Shown one piece after another: positions 28-21,430 of a DNA stretch of 21,430 nucleotides; the stretch's first letter is position 1; each line of letters starts with the position of its first letter. The position numbers were made by a program, and so were the translations under genes. Origin of the DNA: Chthoniobacteraceae bacterium (lineage in GTDB: Bacteria > Verrucomicrobiota > Verrucomicrobiia > Chthoniobacterales > Chthoniobacteraceae); NCBI GenBank assembly GCA_031409335.1, contig JANNWY010000274.1:1-21430 (forward strand), read 5' to 3'. The notes beneath the pieces were generated by a model, which saw only the letters and a list, made by a program, of their open reading frames with translations, was not told the DNA's origin and made no database searches.

Positions 28-933
28 TCATTCGTCGTCCGGCTGTTCGGCCCGCTGTTTGACGATGTCCTCCCGCCCCGCGCGATGACTGAATTCGAGG
101 TGCCCGCCTTTCCCGAAAACCAGCGGCCGTTCGTCATCAGAAAGCACGGTGACGGTGCGCCCGTCGTGTTTCTGCACGGTCGATTCGTCGAAGCGAAAAT
201 GGCGGAGCACGCCGCCGAAGGCCTTCGTGAGATTTTGTTCGGTGAAGACTTCCAGCGTTGGGCCGCAGGCGAGGACGGTGCGATTGACGAGCACGACTTG
301 GTCGCAAAACTCGGGCACGGAGCCGAGATTGTGCGTGGAGACGAGCATGAGATGGCCGTCGGCGCGGAGCTGGCGGAGTAGCTCGATGATCGTGGTCTCG
401 GTCTGCACATCGACGCCGGTGAAGGGCTCGTCTAGGAGGATGATGCGGCCTTGCTGCGCGAGCGCGCGGGCGAGGAAGACACGCTTCTTTTGCCCGCCGC
501 TCAGCTCGCCGATCTGCCGCTCGCGGAAGTCGATCATGCCGACGCGCGCGAGGCTTTCCTCGACGATGCGCCGGTCTTCAGTGCGCGGGATGCGGAGGAA
601 ATTCATGTAGCCGTAGCGGCCCATCATCACCACGTCCCAGACGCTGACCGGGAAGGTCCAATCGACTTCTTCGCTCTGCGGCACGTAGGCGACGAGGTTG
701 CGCTTTTGCGCGGCAGCGACGTTGGCGCCCGCGAGGCGCACGCTGCCTTTGCTCGGCTTCACGAAACCCATGATCGCTTTGAAGAGCGTGGATTTGCCGC
801 TGCCATTGATGCCGACGAGCGCGCAGATGGTGCCGCCGTCAAGGCGGAAGGTGGCGTCGCGCAGGGCGACGTTGCCGTTCGGATACGTGACGGTGACGTC
901 GTGAACGTCGAGTTGGATGGGCGCGTTGGTCAT
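28..933 (-). CDS. sitB: Mn2+/Fe2+ ABC transporter ATP-binding subunit (SitB/MntA-like)
   Basis: Walker [10 protein letters not shown], signature [15 protein letters not shown], Walker [22 protein letters not shown] motif and a C-terminal SDDERPL tail typical of SitB. Overlaps the upstream binding-protein gene by 4 bp. Confidence 0.92.
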
Positions 934-1811
934 TCGCCGAGGAGACCTTTTACGACGGTTTCGACATCGTATTCGAGCATCTTCAAATAGGTCGGCACCG
1001 GGCCTTTCGCATCGCTGAGCGAATCGACATAAAGCACGCCGCCGTAGCGCACGCCGGTTTCCTTCGCGATCTGGCGGGCAGGCTTGTCGCTCACCGTGCT
1101 CTCGCTGAAGACGACGGGAATTTTATTGGCGCGCACGCCGTCGATCACCTTCTGCACCTGCTGCGGCGTGCCCTGCTGATCGGCATTCACCGCCCAGAGA
1201 AACAGCTCTTTCAACCCAAGACTGCGGGCCAGATACGGAAACGCGCCTTCGCTGGTGACCAGCCACCGCTGCGCCTCCGGCACGCGCGCGAGCTTCTCCG
1301 TCACCGCGGTTTCGATGGCTTGAAATTTCGCGGTGTAGGCGGCGGCGTTCGCCGTGTAGGCGGCGGCGTTTTCGGGATCGAGTTTCACGAGCGCCTTGCG
1401 GATGTTCTCCACGTAGATCGTCGCGTTTTGCAGCGACATCCAGGCGTGCGGATTCGGCTTTCCCAGATACGGCCCTTCCTCAATGCCGATGGGCTCGATG
1501 CCTTCCGTGAGCACGACACTCGGGACGTTGCGCAGGTTGCGGAAAAACTTCTCGAACCAGCGTTCAAGGTTCATCCCATTCCACAAAATCAAGTCAGCTT
1601 TCTGCGCCTTCACGATGTCGCCGGGCGTGGGTTCGTAGCCGTGGATTTCCGAGCCGGGCTTGGTGATGGATTCGACGGTGGCTTTGTCGCCCGCGACGTT
1701 CTGCGACATCTCGGCGATGATCGTGAAAGTGGTGACGACACGCTTTTTCGCGGCCCAGGTAGGCACGATGGAAAGCAGCAATGAGAGGGTGATGCAGGCG
1801 ATGTGTTTCAT
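930..1811 (-). CDS. sitA: Mn2+/Fe2+ ABC transporter substrate-binding protein (SitA/MntC/TroA family)
   Basis: Signal peptide, plus metal-ligand motifs [22 protein letters not shown] and LYVDSLS. Confidence 0.93.
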
Positions 1812-1814
1812 AAA

Positions 1815-2612
1815 TTAAAAGCGGATGGAAAAACCGGCAAAGGGTTGAAAGTCGGGCGCGGATTTGGTGAGGCCGAAATTGCAGCCGAAGTCGAGTTGCA
1901 CGTCATCGGTGACCGCATAGGTGAAACCGAGATCGGCCTGCGCCTGCCAGTCAAAGCCCGGCGCGTTGCCGACGACGGTGAAGAGTTCGACGTAACCGCC
2001 CAGTTTGCCGACAATGTCATGACTGAGCGTGATTGAGTTCACCCACTCCGCATCGTGCCCGCCCGCGCCATCGCTCACGAAATCGACTTCAGTCATCAGC
2101 CCCATGCCCCAACCGCCCGGCAGCGCAATGGCGAGCGGGATGATGATGCCGCCTTCCGTCTCGCCGTTGCGCAGGTTCGAGGCGTCGAGCGGGAGCTTGA
2201 TGTAAGGCATGATCGCCAGCGCGGTAGTGCCGCCATCGTTGCCCCAGAGATTGATTTTGAGCCGCGCGGTGATGTCGCCGAAACCGGACGCGCCACTTTC
2301 GCGGACGTAACTATCGAGCACGATCTGTAAATCCACGTTGTTCAGCAGCCCGGCCTTCAGATTGATCGGCGCGACATTCCACGACGGGCGGTGGCGGTCG
2401 TAGGTGAATTTCACGAAATCCATCTCGATCTGAAAATGTCCGGCATCGACCGTGTAGGCGCTCTCCGTCTGATCGGGCCGATCCGTGCTCATCTCGCGCA
2501 TCTCCGCGCGCGGCGTCGGGTGGAAAAGGTGATGGCGGGATTTGTCCGGCGCGGGCTCGGGGCCGGCGAGTGCGGTGGAACCAAGGAGGCAGGCGAAGGC
2601 GGCGGACTTCAT
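1815..2612 (-). CDS. Outer-membrane beta-barrel, MetA-pathway-of-phenol-degradation/COG4313-like 'transporter'
   Basis: Signal peptide from the ATG at 2612 (MKSAAFACLLGSTALA), TDRPDQTESAYTVDAGHFQIE N-terminal motif, SGFGDITARLK motif, alternating beta-strands and a terminal Phe (GFSIRF). Start moved from 2654 to 2612. Confidence 0.8.
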   Translation of the reverse strand: MKSAAFACLLGSTALAGPEPAPDKSRHHLFHPTPRAEMREMSTDRPDQTESAYTVDAGHFQIEMDFVKFTYDRHRPSWNVAPINLKAGLLNNVDLQIVLDSYVRESGASGFGDITARLKINLWGNDGGTTALAIMPYIKLPLDASNLRNGETEGGIIIPLAIALPGGWGMGLMTEVDFVSDGAGGHDAEWVNSITLSHDIVGKLGGYVELFTVVGNAPGFDWQAQADLGFTYAVTDDVQLDFGCNFGLTKSAPDFQPFAGFSIRF

Positions 2613-2649
2613 CAATGCGAGAAAAGCGCGGACCAAGACAGGATGCAAC

Positions 2650-2677
2650 AACAAAGTTAGGCATGACTAATTTTGTT
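2650..2677. promoter_or_regulatory. DtxR/MntR-type operator palindrome between divergent promoters
   Basis: AACAAAGTTAGGCATGACTAATTTTGTT: a 28-bp inverted repeat with 2 mismatched pairs and a TTAG-N6-CTAA core. It is an AT-rich patch between the metal uptake operon and mntR. Confidence 0.8.
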
Positions 2678-2685
2678 TTGTGCGC

Positions 2686-2714
2686 TTGACTCCGCGTGGG
2701 CCGCTTTCTACCGT
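2686..2714 (+). promoter_or_regulatory. Sigma70-like promoter for mntR, probably leaderless
   Basis: TTGACT (2686-2691), 17-nt spacer, TACCGT (2709-2714), then 5 nt before the ATG at 2720. Confidence 0.55.
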
Positions 2715-2719
2715 GCGCC

Positions 2720-3154
2720 ATGCCCGCCAAAACCGCGAAACGCCCGGCTTCCTCCGCAGTCGAGGATTACCTCGAACGCATCCTGGAACTCATCAACACC
2801 AAAGGCTACGCCCGCGTGGCGGACATCGCGCGCAGCCTCGACATCTCACAGGCGAGCGTGACGAACATGATCCAGCGGCTGGATGCCGAGGGGCTGCTGA
2901 AATACGAAAAATATCGCGGCCTCGTGCTCACGACCGCCGGCGAGACGCTGGCGAAAAACATCACGCGCCGCCATCGGCTGCTCACCGATTTCCTAAATCT
3001 TTTCGGACTCGATGAGCAGGTGATTTTCCACGACGTGGAAGGGATGGAGCACCACATCAGCCCGCCGACGCTGCGCGCCATCGAGGCGCTGACCGCACAA
3101 CTCGAAAGGCGGCCCGCGCTCGTCCAGCGGGTCCGTTTAGCGGCGAAGGTTTGA
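2720..3154 (+). CDS. mntR: DtxR/MntR family metal-dependent transcriptional repressor
   Basis: EDYLERI motif, HTH (ARVADIARSLDISQASVTNMIQRL), RRHRLL and DVEGMEHHIS metal-site motifs. Short form without an SH3 domain, divergent from the Mn/Fe ABC genes. Confidence 0.92.
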   Translation: MPAKTAKRPASSAVEDYLERILELINTKGYARVADIARSLDISQASVTNMIQRLDAEGLLKYEKYRGLVLTTAGETLAKNITRRHRLLTDFLNLFGLDEQVIFHDVEGMEHHISPPTLRAIEALTAQLERRPALVQRVRLAAKV

Positions 3155-16466: not shown

Positions 16467-17501
16467 TCAGAGCGCGTGCGCGGCTCCGAACGGCGCGATC
16501 ATTTCGTCGAGCGTGGTAATGAGATTCGAGAGCGCGTCGCGATATTTGTTCGCGGGCACGATCTTCAATTGCGTCGCCGCTTCGCGGAGCATTTTGCGAC
16601 CAGTGGAAACCGCCGAGTTGATCGCACCCGCCTCGACCGCGCGATCGACGAGCAGGCCGATGTCGGCGTCGTCGCCATTGAGAATGATTTCGCTGAGGCG
16701 ATGCCGCTCGGCTTCGTCGCTCTGCTGGAGCAGATGCAGGATCGGCAGCGTCAGCTTGCCTTTGCGAAGGTCGCTGCCGAGCGTCTTGCCGACCTTCGTT
16801 TCGTCGCCCGCGAGGTCCACGCAGTCATCGTAGATCTGATACGCAGTCCCGAGGCGCATTCCGAACGCCTTCAGCGCGCTGATGACCTCTGGCGATGCCT
16901 CGTTGATAAACGCACCGAGTTCCGTCGCCGCGGCGAACAGCGCGCCGGTCTTCATCTCGATGATTTTGTAATAATCCGGGACGCTCAGTTTCAGATCGAA
17001 GCGCCGTTGCGTCTGGATGATTTCGCCGCTGCACACATCCGACGCGGCGTGCGCAATGCGGCGGCTGATTTCGCCGTTTGGAAAATTGGTCGAGAGCTTC
17101 AGCGCGTGCGCGAAAAGGCAGTCGCCGAGCAGGACGGAAATGGCATTGCCCCACTTCGCATTCACGGTGGGTTGGCCGCGGCGTTTGTCCGCGCCGTCGA
17201 GGATGTCGTCGTGAACGAGCGTCGCGGCATGGATCAGCTCGACGACCACAGCGAGTTCGAAATGGCTCGGCCCGATCGCGCCCGTCGCGCCACCGGCGAG
17301 CAGCGCCAGCGCGGGCCGCAGCCGCTTGCCATTGCTCTCGATCGCGTAAGCCACGTAGCCCTCGACGCCCGGATCGAAAGCCCGCGCCTGCTGCCGAATC
17401 CGCTCTTCCACAGAGTAAAGCTGCGAATTGATCAGCTCGAAGGTTTGCTTCAACGCCTGGGTTTTGTCCGCTGGGATTTGGATCTTTGTGAAATTTTTCA
17501 C
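16467..17501 (-). CDS. Trans-polyprenyl diphosphate synthase (IspB/HepT-like)
   Basis: GKRLRP, LIHAATLVHDDILD..RRG, KTGALF, AYQIYDDCVD and GK..GSDLRKGKLTLP motifs; GTG start. Confidence 0.92.
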   Translation of the reverse strand: MKNFTKIQIPADKTQALKQTFELINSQLYSVEERIRQQARAFDPGVEGYVAYAIESNGKRLRPALALLAGGATGAIGPSHFELAVVVELIHAATLVHDDILDGADKRRGQPTVNAKWGNAISVLLGDCLFAHALKLSTNFPNGEISRRIAHAASDVCSGEIIQTQRRFDLKLSVPDYYKIIEMKTGALFAAATELGAFINEASPEVISALKAFGMRLGTAYQIYDDCVDLAGDETKVGKTLGSDLRKGKLTLPILHLLQQSDEAERHRLSEIILNGDDADIGLLVDRAVEAGAINSAVSTGRKMLREAATQLKIVPANKYRDALSNLITTLDEMIAPFGAAHAL

Positions 17502-17507
17502 AAGGGC

Positions 17508-17536
17508 ACGTTAAGAGTTGGAAAGTTGAGTGTCAA
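17508..17536 (-). promoter_or_regulatory. Sigma70 promoter for the polyprenyl synthase-radC-lpxA operon, probably leaderless
   Basis: Minus strand TTGACA, 17-nt spacer, TAACGT, then 6 nt before the GTG start at 17501. Confidence 0.65.
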
Positions 17537-17640
17537 TTCTGTGTCCGATTACGCGCCGGGGCGGCTTTTGGATTCGCAGAGTGATCGCATCAAAATGATC
17601 GATGCAGGTCTGCCGGGGTGCCTTTGCCGGATGGCGGTGG

Positions 17641-18360
17641 CTACGGCAGCGGATCCTTCGCCTTTCCATCCACATCAAACAGAACCACGCTCCCACCGTC
17701 GTCGTCGGCGGTGAGGCTCGCGGCCATGGAACCGTGCGGGCCATACACCGAAAGCACCCCGTGATCGGTATTCGCCGAAAAGAATCCCATCACCTGCCCG
17801 CTCGGCTCGAAAATCGTGATCACCCCCCCCGTCGGCAGCGCCTTGATCGTCACACCCGGCTTTGCCCCCGGTCGCGCCACAAAAATCTCCCCGCCCTGCG
17901 GGTCGCCGCGCAGCATCGCCAGCGCCGGCCCCATTTCCCCCACCACATTCACCAGCCCCACGCCCTCATGCACGCGCAAGCCCGCGCGCGGCTGCCCGCC
18001 GGCCTCCGCCACATAGATTTGCCCGCTCCCATCCGCCGCCTCGGTGAGCGAAATCACCACCTTTCCCGCCGCATTGCGCAGCTCGAAACTCGCCCGCTCC
18101 CCATCCGTCGTGAAAACCGCCCGTGGCCGGTGTTCCCGATCGTGCAGATAAATGCCCGCCGCCGCCTCCTCCGCACAAACCCACACCGGGATATGGCCCG
18201 ACGGCTCTTGAATCAGCACGCGATCCGCGAACAGCTTCAGCGCCTTCGACCGCGGATTGTCAGGCGGATCATCCACCTGATTGAGCAATCTCAACACAAG
18301 ATCGAGGTCGCGGCGCAAGCAGCACACCTCTTCGCGAAGCAGGGCAATTTCATCGGGCAT
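17641..18360 (-). CDS. Hypothetical protein with an N-terminal coiled-coil-like helix and about 9 tandem ~22-aa beta-hairpin repeats
   Basis: Repeats such as AGIYLHDREHRPRAVFTTDGER, GQIYVAEAGGQPRAGLRVHEGV and GVITIFEPSGQVMGFFSANTDH. Confidence 0.72.
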   Translation of the reverse strand: MPDEIALLREEVCCLRRDLDLVLRLLNQVDDPPDNPRSKALKLFADRVLIQEPSGHIPVWVCAEEAAAGIYLHDREHRPRAVFTTDGERASFELRNAAGKVVISLTEAADGSGQIYVAEAGGQPRAGLRVHEGVGLVNVVGEMGPALAMLRGDPQGGEIFVARPGAKPGVTIKALPTGGVITIFEPSGQVMGFFSANTDHGVLSVYGPHGSMAASLTADDDGGSVVLFDVDGKAKDPLP

Positions 18361-18483
18361 TTGACCAAGGCTTTCTGATTGCGCACCATCGAACGAGCCT
18401 AAAACGCTGGCAGCCAGATATAAGACCCACGGCAGGACAGACGTGCAAAGTCGAATAGGGAATCTAGCGGGATGCGTAGCAAC

Positions 18484-18610
18484 GCCTAACGATCAAACTG
18501 AGGCGACCACTGCGGCGGTGGTGGGCGTCGAATCGGCGGCGATGGTTGAAGTTCAAATAAGACAAGTCCGGCACAGAGCCCCAGCGATTGCCTTCAGTGC
18601 TTTGTTAGGC
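18484..18610 (-). mobile_element. Integron attC site (127 bp)
   Basis: Minus strand R'' GCCTAAC ... R' GTTAGGC. Inner arm ACTGA(A)GGCAATCGCTG pairs imperfectly with CAGTGGTCGCCTCAGT, with one bulged base. Lies 16 bp after the cassette stop codon. Confidence 0.85.
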
Positions 18611-18626
18611 TTCGACTGCGCATCAG

Positions 18627-19787
18627 TCATTTGGATTCGGGCTTGGGCGCTACTTGGGCTTCGGCCTTCACGCCCTGGGCGATGAACCTCTGAAGATACT
18701 CGCTGTTCACGGTGACGGTTCGTTTCGAGCGGTTCCACGCGGCCCCGCCCGAGCCCCCGACAAAATCGACGGTCACCTGCGAGTGCCAGTCGATTCGCTG
18801 GAGCGCAGACTCGATCGTCGAGGCGAGGCTTGGCTCTCCCGCGTCCACAAACGCGCGCGTTGACTCGTCGGCACGGAAGCGGGCCTCCTTCGAGACCTTG
18901 CCCGCGGGCATCATCAGCGGGGACAGCGTTCGCCGCCATGCCCGGTGGATGTCCGCCCCATAGTCGCGCGCCTTGGAGATGTCTCGCTCCGACATACCCA
19001 CGATCTCCGCAACGCCGGCGTATTTCTCCTTGTCCGCAGCGATTGCCAGAGCTGCGATCTGGTAAGCGCGCCGGGCATCGTTGTCGTGCTCTCCGCGAAC
19101 GGTCCACTGTTCACGCGGCACCTCGTTCGCTTCGATCACGAGGGACTTGACCCGCGCCGAGATCGCGCGGACCGCCTGCTCAGGGAAATGCTCGGTGAGC
19201 AGGTGCGTGGCAAAGGCATCGGCCATCGTCTCCTCGTTACCCAAAACCATCAGATCGAACTCGCGGATCACCGCGTGGCCGAGTTCATGGAGCACAACGT
19301 GCAGCGTAACGTCCGCTGCGAAGGCCGAGACGGGCACGGGAGGCAAGGTCTCGCCCGTGGTCGCGTTGCGAATGGCGTCGGGCACGGCATAGCCGGGGAG
19401 CGCCGGGTGCTTGCAGTTGATGTGGCGCCAGTGTTCGACCAACGTTGCCAACCGCTTCTGGTCGATCTTGTAATGCTCTGCGGCGATTTTGAGCAGATCG
19501 TCGCCCGTGGCGCTGCGCCTTGCCGCTTTCTCCAGGAATGCATTCACTTCTGACTCGGGTTTGTGCTCAGCGCGGGTAAGCACGTTCGATATGATAGCTC
19601 TCATGTCCCAGGCGATTTTCATGTCCCCTGTGCACTGTAGGGTTGCGGGCGGTTGAGGCTTTGGCTCAGCAACCACCGGGGGAGGGAGAGGGGCGGCCTC
19701 TTGAGCCAAGGCCACGGCTACAAAGGCTACGCTGCACGCAACCCCGATTGAATTAGTTAGAAGTGTCTTGAAGTTGTGATTGTTCAT
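18627..19787 (-). CDS. Gene cassette: secreted DUF4344-like putative metallopeptidase
   Basis: Signal peptide, Pro-rich linker, HVVLHELGHAVI (HExxH), EETMADAFA and GEHDNDARRAYQI motifs; flanked by attC sites. Confidence 0.8.
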   Translation of the reverse strand: MNNHNFKTLLTNSIGVACSVAFVAVALAQEAAPLPPPVVAEPKPQPPATLQCTGDMKIAWDMRAIISNVLTRAEHKPESEVNAFLEKAARRSATGDDLLKIAAEHYKIDQKRLATLVEHWRHINCKHPALPGYAVPDAIRNATTGETLPPVPVSAFAADVTLHVVLHELGHAVIREFDLMVLGNEETMADAFATHLLTEHFPEQAVRAISARVKSLVIEANEVPREQWTVRGEHDNDARRAYQIAALAIAADKEKYAGVAEIVGMSERDISKARDYGADIHRAWRRTLSPLMMPAGKVSKEARFRADESTRAFVDAGEPSLASTIESALQRIDWHSQVTVDFVGGSGGAAWNRSKRTVTVNSEYLQRFIAQGVKAEAQVAPKPESK

Positions 19788-19836
19788 TGGGGTTGGTTTG
19801 TTCAGCTATCGTTACCTCGGGACGCACGAGGAAGCC

Positions 19837-19937
19837 GCCTAACGTTTGCACTCTGGCACAGATGGGGCGCACACAGCGCTCACGAATCAGAGAAAACTCC
19901 GACGCCCCATCTGTTGCCAGCAGTGCTCTTGTTCGCC
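19837..19937 (-). mobile_element. Integron attC site (101 bp)
   Basis: Minus strand R'' GGCGAAC ... R' GTTAGGC. A 22-bp stem, GCACT(G)CTGGCA(A)CAGATGGGGCG / CGCCCCATCTGTGCCAGAGTGC, carries two extrahelical bases. Confidence 0.9.
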
Positions 19938-19959
19938 TTTGGTTGATTGTGCTGGGTGG

Positions 19960-20559
19960 TCATGAGCCGAAAAGCCTACTGAAGAAACCTCGCTTCGGCT
20001 GCGACTGCTCGGTAGCTGTGGAAGTTTGCGTGAGGACATGAAAAGTGCCGTCAATAACATGGGGTGAATCCTCGTCATGCTTGAATCCGACGATGCTCTG
20101 GGCAACGGCGAGAGGGATGTCAAAGAGGTAGTCCACATTAGCCTTCGTGCCACCAGCCTCCGTCTGCTTCCGCTCTAGGTCACTTCGGATAGAGTCAAAA
20201 CAGGCAGGCAGTGTCCCAGTGGCATCTAATCCCTTGGCACCACCACTGCCATCGTGGTGGATGAACCAGTGTCTAAGTCCCACTCGCCAAAGCGTGGCGG
20301 TGCTGTCCATGCAGTGTTCCTCTACTGTGCAAGCGATGACGTCGTGATGATGGGAAAGTGAGGAAAGCTCTTTCTCACCAAGGAATGGACACTCATACTT
20401 GTTATACGAGAGCACCCGCCAACCCGTGTCCAGACGAGCGGAAGAAATCAACGAGTCAGGGCACTCATCTGTCTCGCCTGTGGGGACTAAGCCGAGACGC
20501 TGAAGGAACGAATCCGAGTGTGCTTCTGGAACGGCGAACCAAGTAATCGAGAATCCCAT
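19960..20559 (-). CDS. Gene cassette: hypothetical protein (199 aa)
   Basis: ATG at 20559 (MGFSITWFAV) lies 20 bp after the upstream attC. The longer start at 20658 would run through the attC. Ends in KRGFFSRLFGS. Confidence 0.78.
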   Translation of the reverse strand: MGFSITWFAVPEAHSDSFLQRLGLVPTGETDECPDSLISSARLDTGWRVLSYNKYECPFLGEKELSSLSHHHDVIACTVEEHCMDSTATLWRVGLRHWFIHHDGSGGAKGLDATGTLPACFDSIRSDLERKQTEAGGTKANVDYLFDIPLAVAQSIVGFKHDEDSPHVIDGTFHVLTQTSTATEQSQPKRGFFSRLFGS

Positions 20560-20579
20560 GGCGAGTGGTGTTGAAGTTA

Positions 20580-20672
20580 GGCGAACGACTCGGATCAGGC
20601 GACGGCGAGCGGGAGGCGTCGATGACACGACAGATGCCATACGAGCCGTTGCCTGCATCCGTTTTGTTCGCC
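20580..20672 (-). mobile_element. Integron attC site (93 bp) with atypical R boxes GGCGAAC/GTTCGCC
   Basis: Minus strand GGCGAAC-AAAA-CGGAT(G)CAGGCAACGGC ... GCCGTCGCCTGATCCG-AGTC-GTTCGCC, showing a bulged base and an unpaired spacer between the R and L boxes. Confidence 0.88.
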
Positions 20673-20726
20673 TTCGGTTTGTTGTGGTGGCAGTTCATGG
20701 AGGTTGGTCAGTGCCAAAACTCGCTG

Positions 20727-21077
20727 CTAAATCCCTGCGACAATACCGAACCATCCCCAAACCCACCAGAAAAATCCTCCACATAAAGTGAGACATAACG
20801 TCCACCGCCTCGGCATGATTGGGTGGGAGATGATGCCGATCACACTGCAAACGGGGACTGTGAACGACCATGGAAACTGTGGATGCCGAACAAGTGGCCC
20901 ATACGACGGTATCGGCCCTGCCAACTGAATAAGCACGATGTCTAGTCGCCGTGCTATCGTCATGTCGCGGAACGTGAATGCGAACAGGATACTGGCGGTC
21001 ACCATCAGTCCGGCAGCGACCGAAAGGGCAAACCAGCGTCTCCTCACCAAGGAGATGGTTGTCGTATCTGGAATCAT
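20727..21077 (-). CDS. Gene cassette: small hypothetical membrane protein (116 aa)
   Basis: Three hydrophobic segments. Fills the space between the attC remnant at about 21099-21103 and the attC at 20580-20672. Confidence 0.6.
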   Translation of the reverse strand: MIPDTTTISLVRRRWFALSVAAGLMVTASILFAFTFRDMTIARRLDIVLIQLAGPIPSYGPLVRHPQFPWSFTVPVCSVIGIISHPIMPRRWTLCLTLCGGFFWWVWGWFGIVAGI

Positions 21078-21103
21078 TGGGCTGCGCTCTCGGAGTTAGG
21101 CGA

Positions 21104-21430
21104 GACTTTATGGCTGCCCTCCATGTGAGCGCGGCGTTTTCTGAAAGGGGAAGCGGTGTGCTTGAGGAGTGGCGAAGTCGCGGGTTGCGCGGGATAAACC
21201 GTGCCGAGCCGCATTCTGTGCGGGATCACCGCCGGAGCGGCGTCACCAATGATAAAGCCAACACACAACAAGCACAACATGAACAAAGAACTACTGTTTG
21301 TCGGACTCGATGTCCACGCGAAAAACATCACCGTGGCCCTCGCGGGTGTCATTAATTGTGGTGCATGCTTGGGATGGGTTGGTGAGGGGGCCAGAAGGCG
21401 TCCCAATGTTGGTTGGCGCGCAGGACGCGG
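21104..21430 (+). mobile_element. Left end of an IS110-family element inserted in an attC R' box
   Basis: Junction agttaggcga|gacttt replaces the expected agttaggcga|ac. It is followed by ~175 nt of non-coding sequence and then an IS110-like transposase start. Confidence 0.65.
21279..21430 (+). pseudogene. IS110-family transposase N-terminus (DEDD RuvC-like), apparently interrupted after about 22 codons
   Basis: ATG at 21279 reads MNKELLFVGLDVHAKNITVALA, the IS110 first catalytic-Asp motif. The continuation GVINCGACLGWVGEG does not look like IS110. Absent from the ORF track because the frame runs off the window. Confidence 0.68.

Follow-up and report, generated by a model that had tools for sequence, protein, structure and literature searches.

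A truncated IS110-family element in the crossover box of an integron attC site and the predicted guide RNA of its intact relatives

Results

The window, a stretch of 21,430 nucleotides that makes up the whole of contig C274 in the 7.9-Mb draft genome of a Chthoniobacteraceae bacterium (G000), carries a minus-strand cassette array within its final 4 kb, followed at the contig end by the remains of two insertion sequences (Table 1). The array shows the hallmarks of an integron, with attC hairpins whose R'' and R' boxes match lying between co-oriented genes and an integrase gene, intI, present in the genome on a different contig (C166; TIGR02249, 416 bits). The attC site at 20580-20672 is predicted to fold stably (DNA fold of 20578-20673, -28.5 kcal/mol, z -5.7). 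An Rfam search of positions 17500-21430 returned three matches, every one of them below the gathering score. Around R'', a 52-nt stretch is 75% identical between two adjacent cassettes (19913-19964 and 20648-20699), and both of them start with TTCGCCTAACT, which suggests a common origin. The first 399 nt of C166 hold a cassette start and an attI-like junction ahead of intI, and the array there runs off the contig start; the array in the window may be its far end. Upstream in the window, positions 930-3154 contain what appear to be Mn/Zn/Fe ABC transporter genes and a DtxR/MntR-like regulator, assigned by the look of their translations alone.

Table 1. Features of the cassette array and of the insertion-sequence remnants near the end of the window.
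Feature	Position	Strand	Basis or remark
attC-like site, last of the array	18484..18610	-	R boxes pair; fold energy z -0.1, not better than shuffles
Cassette gene, 386 aa, DUF4344 putative metallopeptidase	18627..19787	-	Translation and Pfam
Intact attC, R'' GGCGAAC / R' GTTAGGC	19837..19937	-	Sequence
Cassette gene, 199 aa counted from ATG, without Pfam family	19960..20559	-	Translation and Pfam
Intact attC, R'' GGCGAAC / R' GTTCGCC	20580..20672	-	Sequence and DNA fold
Cassette gene, 116 aa, without Pfam family	20727..21077	-	Translation and Pfam; own R'' GGCGAAC
Residual part of the split R' box (bottom strand, GGCG)	21099..21102	+	Sole G-ending flank among 53 left flanks
IS110-family left remnant (left end, 176-nt leader, first 22 codons)	21103..21343	+	97.9% identity to the copy on C38
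Terminal 7 nt, AGACTTT	21103..21109	+	First A common to target and element
Left subterminal inverted repeat, ATGGCTGCC	21110..21118	+	Partner 3 nt from the right end in relatives, C9 and C268
5' fragment of a DEDD transposase gene	21279..21343	+	Frame start MNKELLFVGLDVHAKNITVALA
End of an ISKra4-like element, inserted in the DEDD transposase gene	21344..21430	-	Opposite orientation; runs off the contig

The original prediction, made from the letters of the window, placed an IS110-family element in the core of an attC site, and the observations on which it was built could all be reproduced. The 10-mer AGTTAGGCGA is found at 20575-20584, where it runs into an intact attC, and again at 21094-21103, where it runs into the element. 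Because the cassette with the gene at 20727-21077 has the R'' box GGCGAAC, 54 nt past the stop codon, its start is expected to read GTTCGCC, of which only TCGCC is retained, the T being common to the element end. The opposite-strand frame indeed begins at 21279, 176 nt from the element end, with MNKELLFVGLDVHAKNITVALA. In a second copy, on contig C38, this frame extends into a DEDD_Tnp_IS110 domain (PF01548, E 1.5e-18), which bears out the family assignment. In the window, the gene is cut after 22 codons, at 21344, by a second repeat that has seven other copies in the genome, with starts at 21342-21344, and whose transposase is ISKra4-like (NF033572, E 2.3e-53, under the curated cut-off). Positions 21103-21343 therefore represent the left-hand remnant of an IS110-family element that a second one has interrupted. 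The shared first A of its terminal heptanucleotide may represent a 1-nt core.

Several further observations concern these two elements and the repeats around them. At least eight copies of the ISKra4-like element lie at varied sites (window 21344-21430 and contigs C68, C155, C147, C146, C77, C5 and C154), the copy on C154 being diverged and frameshifted, and those on C146 and C147 adjoin a palindrome of ATCGAAC heptamers. Palindromes of this kind, 70-140 nt long with tandem heptamers on both arms, occur on about 30 contigs of the genome (for instance C195:4018-4117 and C17:20404-20510) and imitate attC boxes in simple scans. They make up most of the 133 matches of a mechanical attC scan, which was discarded as an attC count. 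In intact copies of the IS110-family element, a leader segment corresponding to window positions 21153-21162 is complementary to the bases directly before the start codon (21268-21281), a pairing that may hide the start codon; the window copy has a mismatch within this complementarity.

The same genome contains four further left ends (on C38, C150, C213 and C57) and two right ends (on C9 and C268). A BLAST search against the genome mapped the left end to 21103 in all four copies, within a nucleotide of the predicted 21104. As also anticipated, their flanks are attC-like: all four read, on the opposite strand, as a cassette start minus GT, followed by a gene. The expected R'' comes after this gene on C38 and C213; it was looked for after the gene on C150 and C57 and not found. 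The copy on C57 (11650-12098) is decayed, with several small insertions and without a nearby right end. The attC remainder that should follow the right end is seen in relatives and on C9 and C268. None of the right ends could be assigned to the window copy, and a tblastn search with a full-length relative did not recover the C-terminal half of the transposase from the genome, the right ends having come from a DNA search.

The target site was derived from a wider set of loci, gathered from metagenomes, named genomes and relatives with P0002, a full-length relative protein that is 96% identical to the C38 fragment and served as stand-in query. The 108 sequences yielded 55 distinct left junctions, from which two right-end/left-end joints were removed (n=53). 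The left flank ends in T in 48 cases, in C in four and in G in one, the window itself, and it reads GCCT in 39 of the 53. On the right, 38 of 42 distinct junctions start with AACG, the beginning of the missing attC body, including those on C9 and C268; the four that lack AAC are L011, L032, L111 and the circle joint L015. At genome positions, the chance levels are 0.4% for GCCT and 1.1% for AAC. An ATG frame of at least 50 codons that starts within 90 nt and points away from the element is present in 35 of the 39 left flanks that are long enough, compared with 37% of random positions. Many right flanks run into a clear hairpin ending in GTT, and a strict fold test paired AAC with GTT in 8 of 16 rebuilt empty sites (2 weakly). 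Two empty sites of the commonest target type exist in the window's genome. The left and right junctions together define the target as RYYT^AAC on the bottom strand of R', a single A belonging to target and element alike. Crossover by the integron integrase IntI takes place within AAC, directly before the C, so that the element splits the R' box 1-2 nt from this crossover, as the original prediction had proposed. Intact relatives are antisense to the cassettes, and the target duplication amounts to at most one shared A; one target, one orientation and no long target duplication are features of the IS110 family in the broad sense. The left flank in the window departs from the consensus guide at two of the four junction-adjacent positions (GGCG for GCCT), the only such case seen.

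Named close relatives come from Pedosphaera and Chthoniobacteraceae. Two Pseudomonadota matches are 1.9-kb contigs that hold little beyond the element and may be misbinned. A few junctions are irregular. At the left junction of L115 (G014:C38), the left end is preceded by CTGCCATATC, which resembles a right end and might reflect a tandem or remnant insertion; in L032, 48 unrelated bases separate the right end from an intact attC, and the right end of L011 continues into non-attC sequence.

End to end, the intact relatives measure 1583-1801 bp in 18 elements, with two more at 2094 and 2239 bp. They begin with AGAC..ATGG and finish with CCAT plus 3 nt. Subterminal ATGGCT repeats are set in from the ends by 7 nt (left) and 3 nt (right). 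In 16 of 18 elements, the first six bases of the two repeats pair with each other; the repeats are short and imperfect, with 4-11 uninterrupted nt. The original prediction had placed the long non-coding region upstream of the gene, as in the IS110 group, an assignment made with only the left end in view, which proved wrong: the longer region lies downstream, with 255-447 nt between the end of the longest frame and the right end (18 elements), compared with a leader of about 175 nt. This downstream region has a mean column identity of 79% (17 sequences), and its predicted fold contains 12 of 51 pairs with a change on both sides. L015, a contig that closes on itself through a 127-nt terminal overlap, carries a right-end/left-end joint; a collapsed tandem copy would look identical. 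At 15-16 nt inward of the right end there is a conserved TTG-CA hexamer, to which inspection by eye could match no clean -10 box of a junction promoter.

Because the guide region of the window genome's own element is not assembled, the guide was derived from relatives, the closest of which are 80-91% identical to P0002. In their downstream regions, a complement of the right target comes first, followed by a copy of the left-target sequence and then by one of the circle-junction sequence. The top-strand match lies 5' of the bottom-strand match, the order reported for IS1111 seekRNAs in PMC11187229. Over 35 elements (L154 and L159 left out), the longest junction-anchored match within an element's own downstream region has a mean length of 6.6 nt with the right target and 7.1 nt with the donor, compared with maxima of 5.9 and 6.6 nt in 5000 permutations, values that overstate the significance because the elements are related, and with 3.7 and 4.1 nt in shuffled regions. 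The right-target segments vary with their sites (GTCGTT:AACGAC, GGCGTT:AACGCC, GACGTT:AACGTC) and the donor segments with the right ends (ATATCAG:CATATC, ATACCAG:CATACC, ATCACAG:CATCAC, ATATGAG:CATATG). Co-change of segment and site extends to outgroups, in which L155 matches its own non-attC right flank at 9/9 nt. Right-flank matches are weak, at only 4-5 nt, in L012, L020, L033, L035, L111, L118, L119, L149 and L152, and the donor segment fails (at most 4 nt) in L026, L119 and two of three outgroups. In the RNAalifold model, three bases of both target guides pair mutually, without a clean loop. From these patterns, we infer that the downstream region yields a guide (bridge or seek) RNA.

P0002 matches PF01548, PF02371 and NF033542 above cut-off and hence belongs to the IS110 family in the broad sense by its domains. 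The narrow IS110 group is defined by a longer non-coding region and guide RNA upstream and by absent or very short subterminal repeats, none of which applies here. Members of the IS1111 group have subterminal inverted repeats 7 and 3 nt from their ends, and the new lineage conforms to this layout in its repeat positions (a spacing also seen in L068), its longer downstream region and its leading top-strand target match. Core IS1111 transposases are 330-350 aa long; those of the new lineage have 378-389 aa, and P0002 is only 24.5% identical to IS5075 over 241 aa. While the IS1111-group layout holds, the protein-based place in that group is less clear. In the final tree (16 rows, LG+G4 without mixture model, one long branch), seven rows with insertions at R' form one clade (99/98) beside ISSfr2 and ISEc45 (99/99), and ISPa62 (L156) and L068 group with IS5075 and ISShdy1. 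A quick 39-row tree, from which L113 was left out, gave the 20-row clade an SH-aLRT of 96. ISPa62 and L068, an ISUnCu1-type element whose name is taken from a preprint, are stand-ins for the known attC-targeting elements in this tree, from which ISPa21, ISPst6, ISPa25 and ISKpn4 are absent; uniting the attC-R' rows with these two stand-ins was rejected (p-AU 0.000127). Together with the different insertion point in attC, this result upholds the proposal of a separate lineage. ISPpu9 and ISAzs32 were considered as members of the clade and ruled out, as their sequences show other motifs.

Occupation leaves R'', both L boxes and GTT of the upstream attC in place and exchanges only the outer four bases of its R' box. 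In predicted folds, the AAC-GTT pairing of the empty form was lost in the occupied form at all six foldable sites (11 tried), at a predicted cost of 0.4-3.8 kcal/mol. Since the attC body is left whole, the site may be weakened rather than destroyed; the models suggest a weakened attC, not one proven dead, and its inactivation is plausible.

Discussion

Our results make it very probable that the window contains the cut-off left end of an IS110-family element located in the crossover box R' of an attC site, to which a guide RNA, predicted to derive from the downstream region, likely directed it. On excision, the element would form a circle in which 10 nt separate the repeats. The downstream, right-end RNA would bind the DEDD recombinase and pair with the attC body on the right side of the site, with the cassette start on its left side and with the circle junction, enabling the recombinase to join circle and target by recombination at the shared A. 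In this scheme, circle excision and RNA-guided pairing with target and donor are carried over from the family as described in PMC11187229 and PMC11208160. The attC body, which the right guide would read, does not vary within an attC family; the start of the following cassette, which the left guide would read, does. The window copy likely landed on a site poorly suited to its left guide (GGCG for GCCT) and was then broken by the ISKra4-like insertion.

Tolerance of guide mismatches is the simplest reading of the window flank. Alternatively, the lineage could be as described and the junction in the window be secondary, produced by a rearrangement or an assembly join beside a GTTCGCC cassette. 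The flank is the sole one among 53 that ends in G, irregular junctions also occur elsewhere (L011, L032) and the contig stops about 90 nt into a repeat; we nevertheless judge this scenario unlikely, given that the register is identical to that of all other junctions and that the cassette's own R'' predicts exactly such a start. Moreover, the adjacent intact attC reads GGCG^AACGACTC, so that GGCG sites with a guide-matching body do exist in the array. The proximity of the insertion point to the IntI crossover (at most 2 nt) and the presence of intI in the genome would also be in keeping with a role of the integron integrase, rather than the transposase, in placing the element circle at the crossover as a pseudo-cassette. 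However, an IntI product would retain TT on the cassette side, whereas the junctions retain T there and the whole AAC on the attC side, and outgroups with the same ends (L052, L153, L155) occupy sites outside attC that agree with their own guide segments, leaving this idea with scarcely any credibility.

Two other readings concern the kind of element involved. The 176-nt leader is long, conserved and predicted to fold better than shuffles (z -2.66), and exceptions to the rule on the location of the non-coding region are reported in PMC11187229, as would befit an IS110-group element with its guide RNA upstream. Yet matches in the leader are at chance, averaging 2.7 nt (left target), 3.5 nt (right target) and 3.1 nt (donor), compared with 4.9, 6.5 and 7.3 nt downstream (23 elements; regions of 160 and 305 nt), and the intact relatives possess subterminal repeats, making this reading, which builds on the IS110-group assignment of the original prediction, highly improbable. 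We give equally little weight to the possibility that the element is an ordinary member of the IS1111-attC group (ISKpn4, ISPst6, ISPa21, ISPa25), or has borrowed its guide RNA from that group, as in ISPa25. The new lineage does share with this group the DEDD transposase, the ATGG subterminal repeats, the long downstream region, the target class and the antisense orientation within attC. However, P0002 is closer to ISSfr2 (53.5% identity over 370 aa) than to the ISUnCu1-type transposase (30.7% over only 176 aa), and a blastn search of 72,556 plasmids at E 1 returned nothing for the downstream region, which by eye resembles that of ISSfr2. Furthermore, the known group splits R'' from L'', an insertion described as 'near the 5'-end' of attC in PMC3001079, whereas the new lineage splits R' at the crossover. 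In the aadA1 attC examined here, the known type inserts 6 nt after R'', past the first G of L'' (L068 at both ends, L156 at the right end). The new elements thus share neither the transposase clade nor the R''-L'' insertion of the IS1111-attC group and, while targeting attC and apparently working like IS1111 elements, are not members of it.

A distinct lineage with a predicted downstream guide RNA therefore remains the preferred reading, and among its closest known counterparts is ISSfr2, which likewise starts with AGAC, has its repeats 7 and 3 nt from the ends and shows target matches at corresponding downstream positions, with ISEc45 (42.7% identity to P0002) being more distant. The examined copy of ISSfr2 differs in that it lies in a non-attC site and has a leader of about 105 nt, as opposed to about 175 nt in the attC-R' elements. 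ISSfr2, ISEc45 and ISCARN28 have a YEAGP motif in common, and the attC-R' elements form a clade of their own. Judged by list order only, the source data of PMC11187229 count ISSfr2 among the IS1111-type sequences, and ISCARN28 provides one of the six bridge RNAs drawn in PMC11208160. IS621 and ISEc21, of the IS110 group, have the same two Pfam domains and the RNA-guided recombination of circle and target that is predicted for the new lineage; however, their RNA lies upstream, in the left end, the order of the guides is reversed, and their proteins are very distant from P0002 (IS621, E 4e-4; ISEc21, E 3.5). Group IIC-attC introns likewise invade attC antisense to the array, near its 5' end according to PMC3001079, but are retroelements.

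In the literature searched, we came across no account of an element of the ISSfr2/ISEc45 type inserted at attC R'. The class of mechanism is already known, and the window copy is a dead fragment; by its sequences, however, the lineage appears to be a so far undescribed, independent group of insertion sequences that targets the attC crossover and is predicted to be RNA-guided, and it likely reached attC independently of the ISKpn4/ISPst6 group. It is tempting to go further and speculate, doubtful as this extension may be, that a phylum-wide RNA-guided lineage enters integrons at the crossover of their integrase, posing as the head of the next cassette, and has had its guide retuned repeatedly to local attC families. 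As the upstream attC retains GTT and the L stem, IntI could then remain able to excise or shuffle the element, taking the following cassette along. If true, the element would ride two recombinases, its own and IntI.

Collectively, our findings indicate that insertion sequences with a guide RNA, predicted in the present case, have converged on attC on at least two occasions, using different ends of the site, and insertion at the crossover would have a different consequence from that of the known IS1111-attC group. The clade represents a series of natural variants whose target and donor segments change alongside their sites. These variants offer a test set for asking whether IS1111-type RNAs contain a donor guide in addition to a target guide and how far mismatches with the left guide are tolerated.
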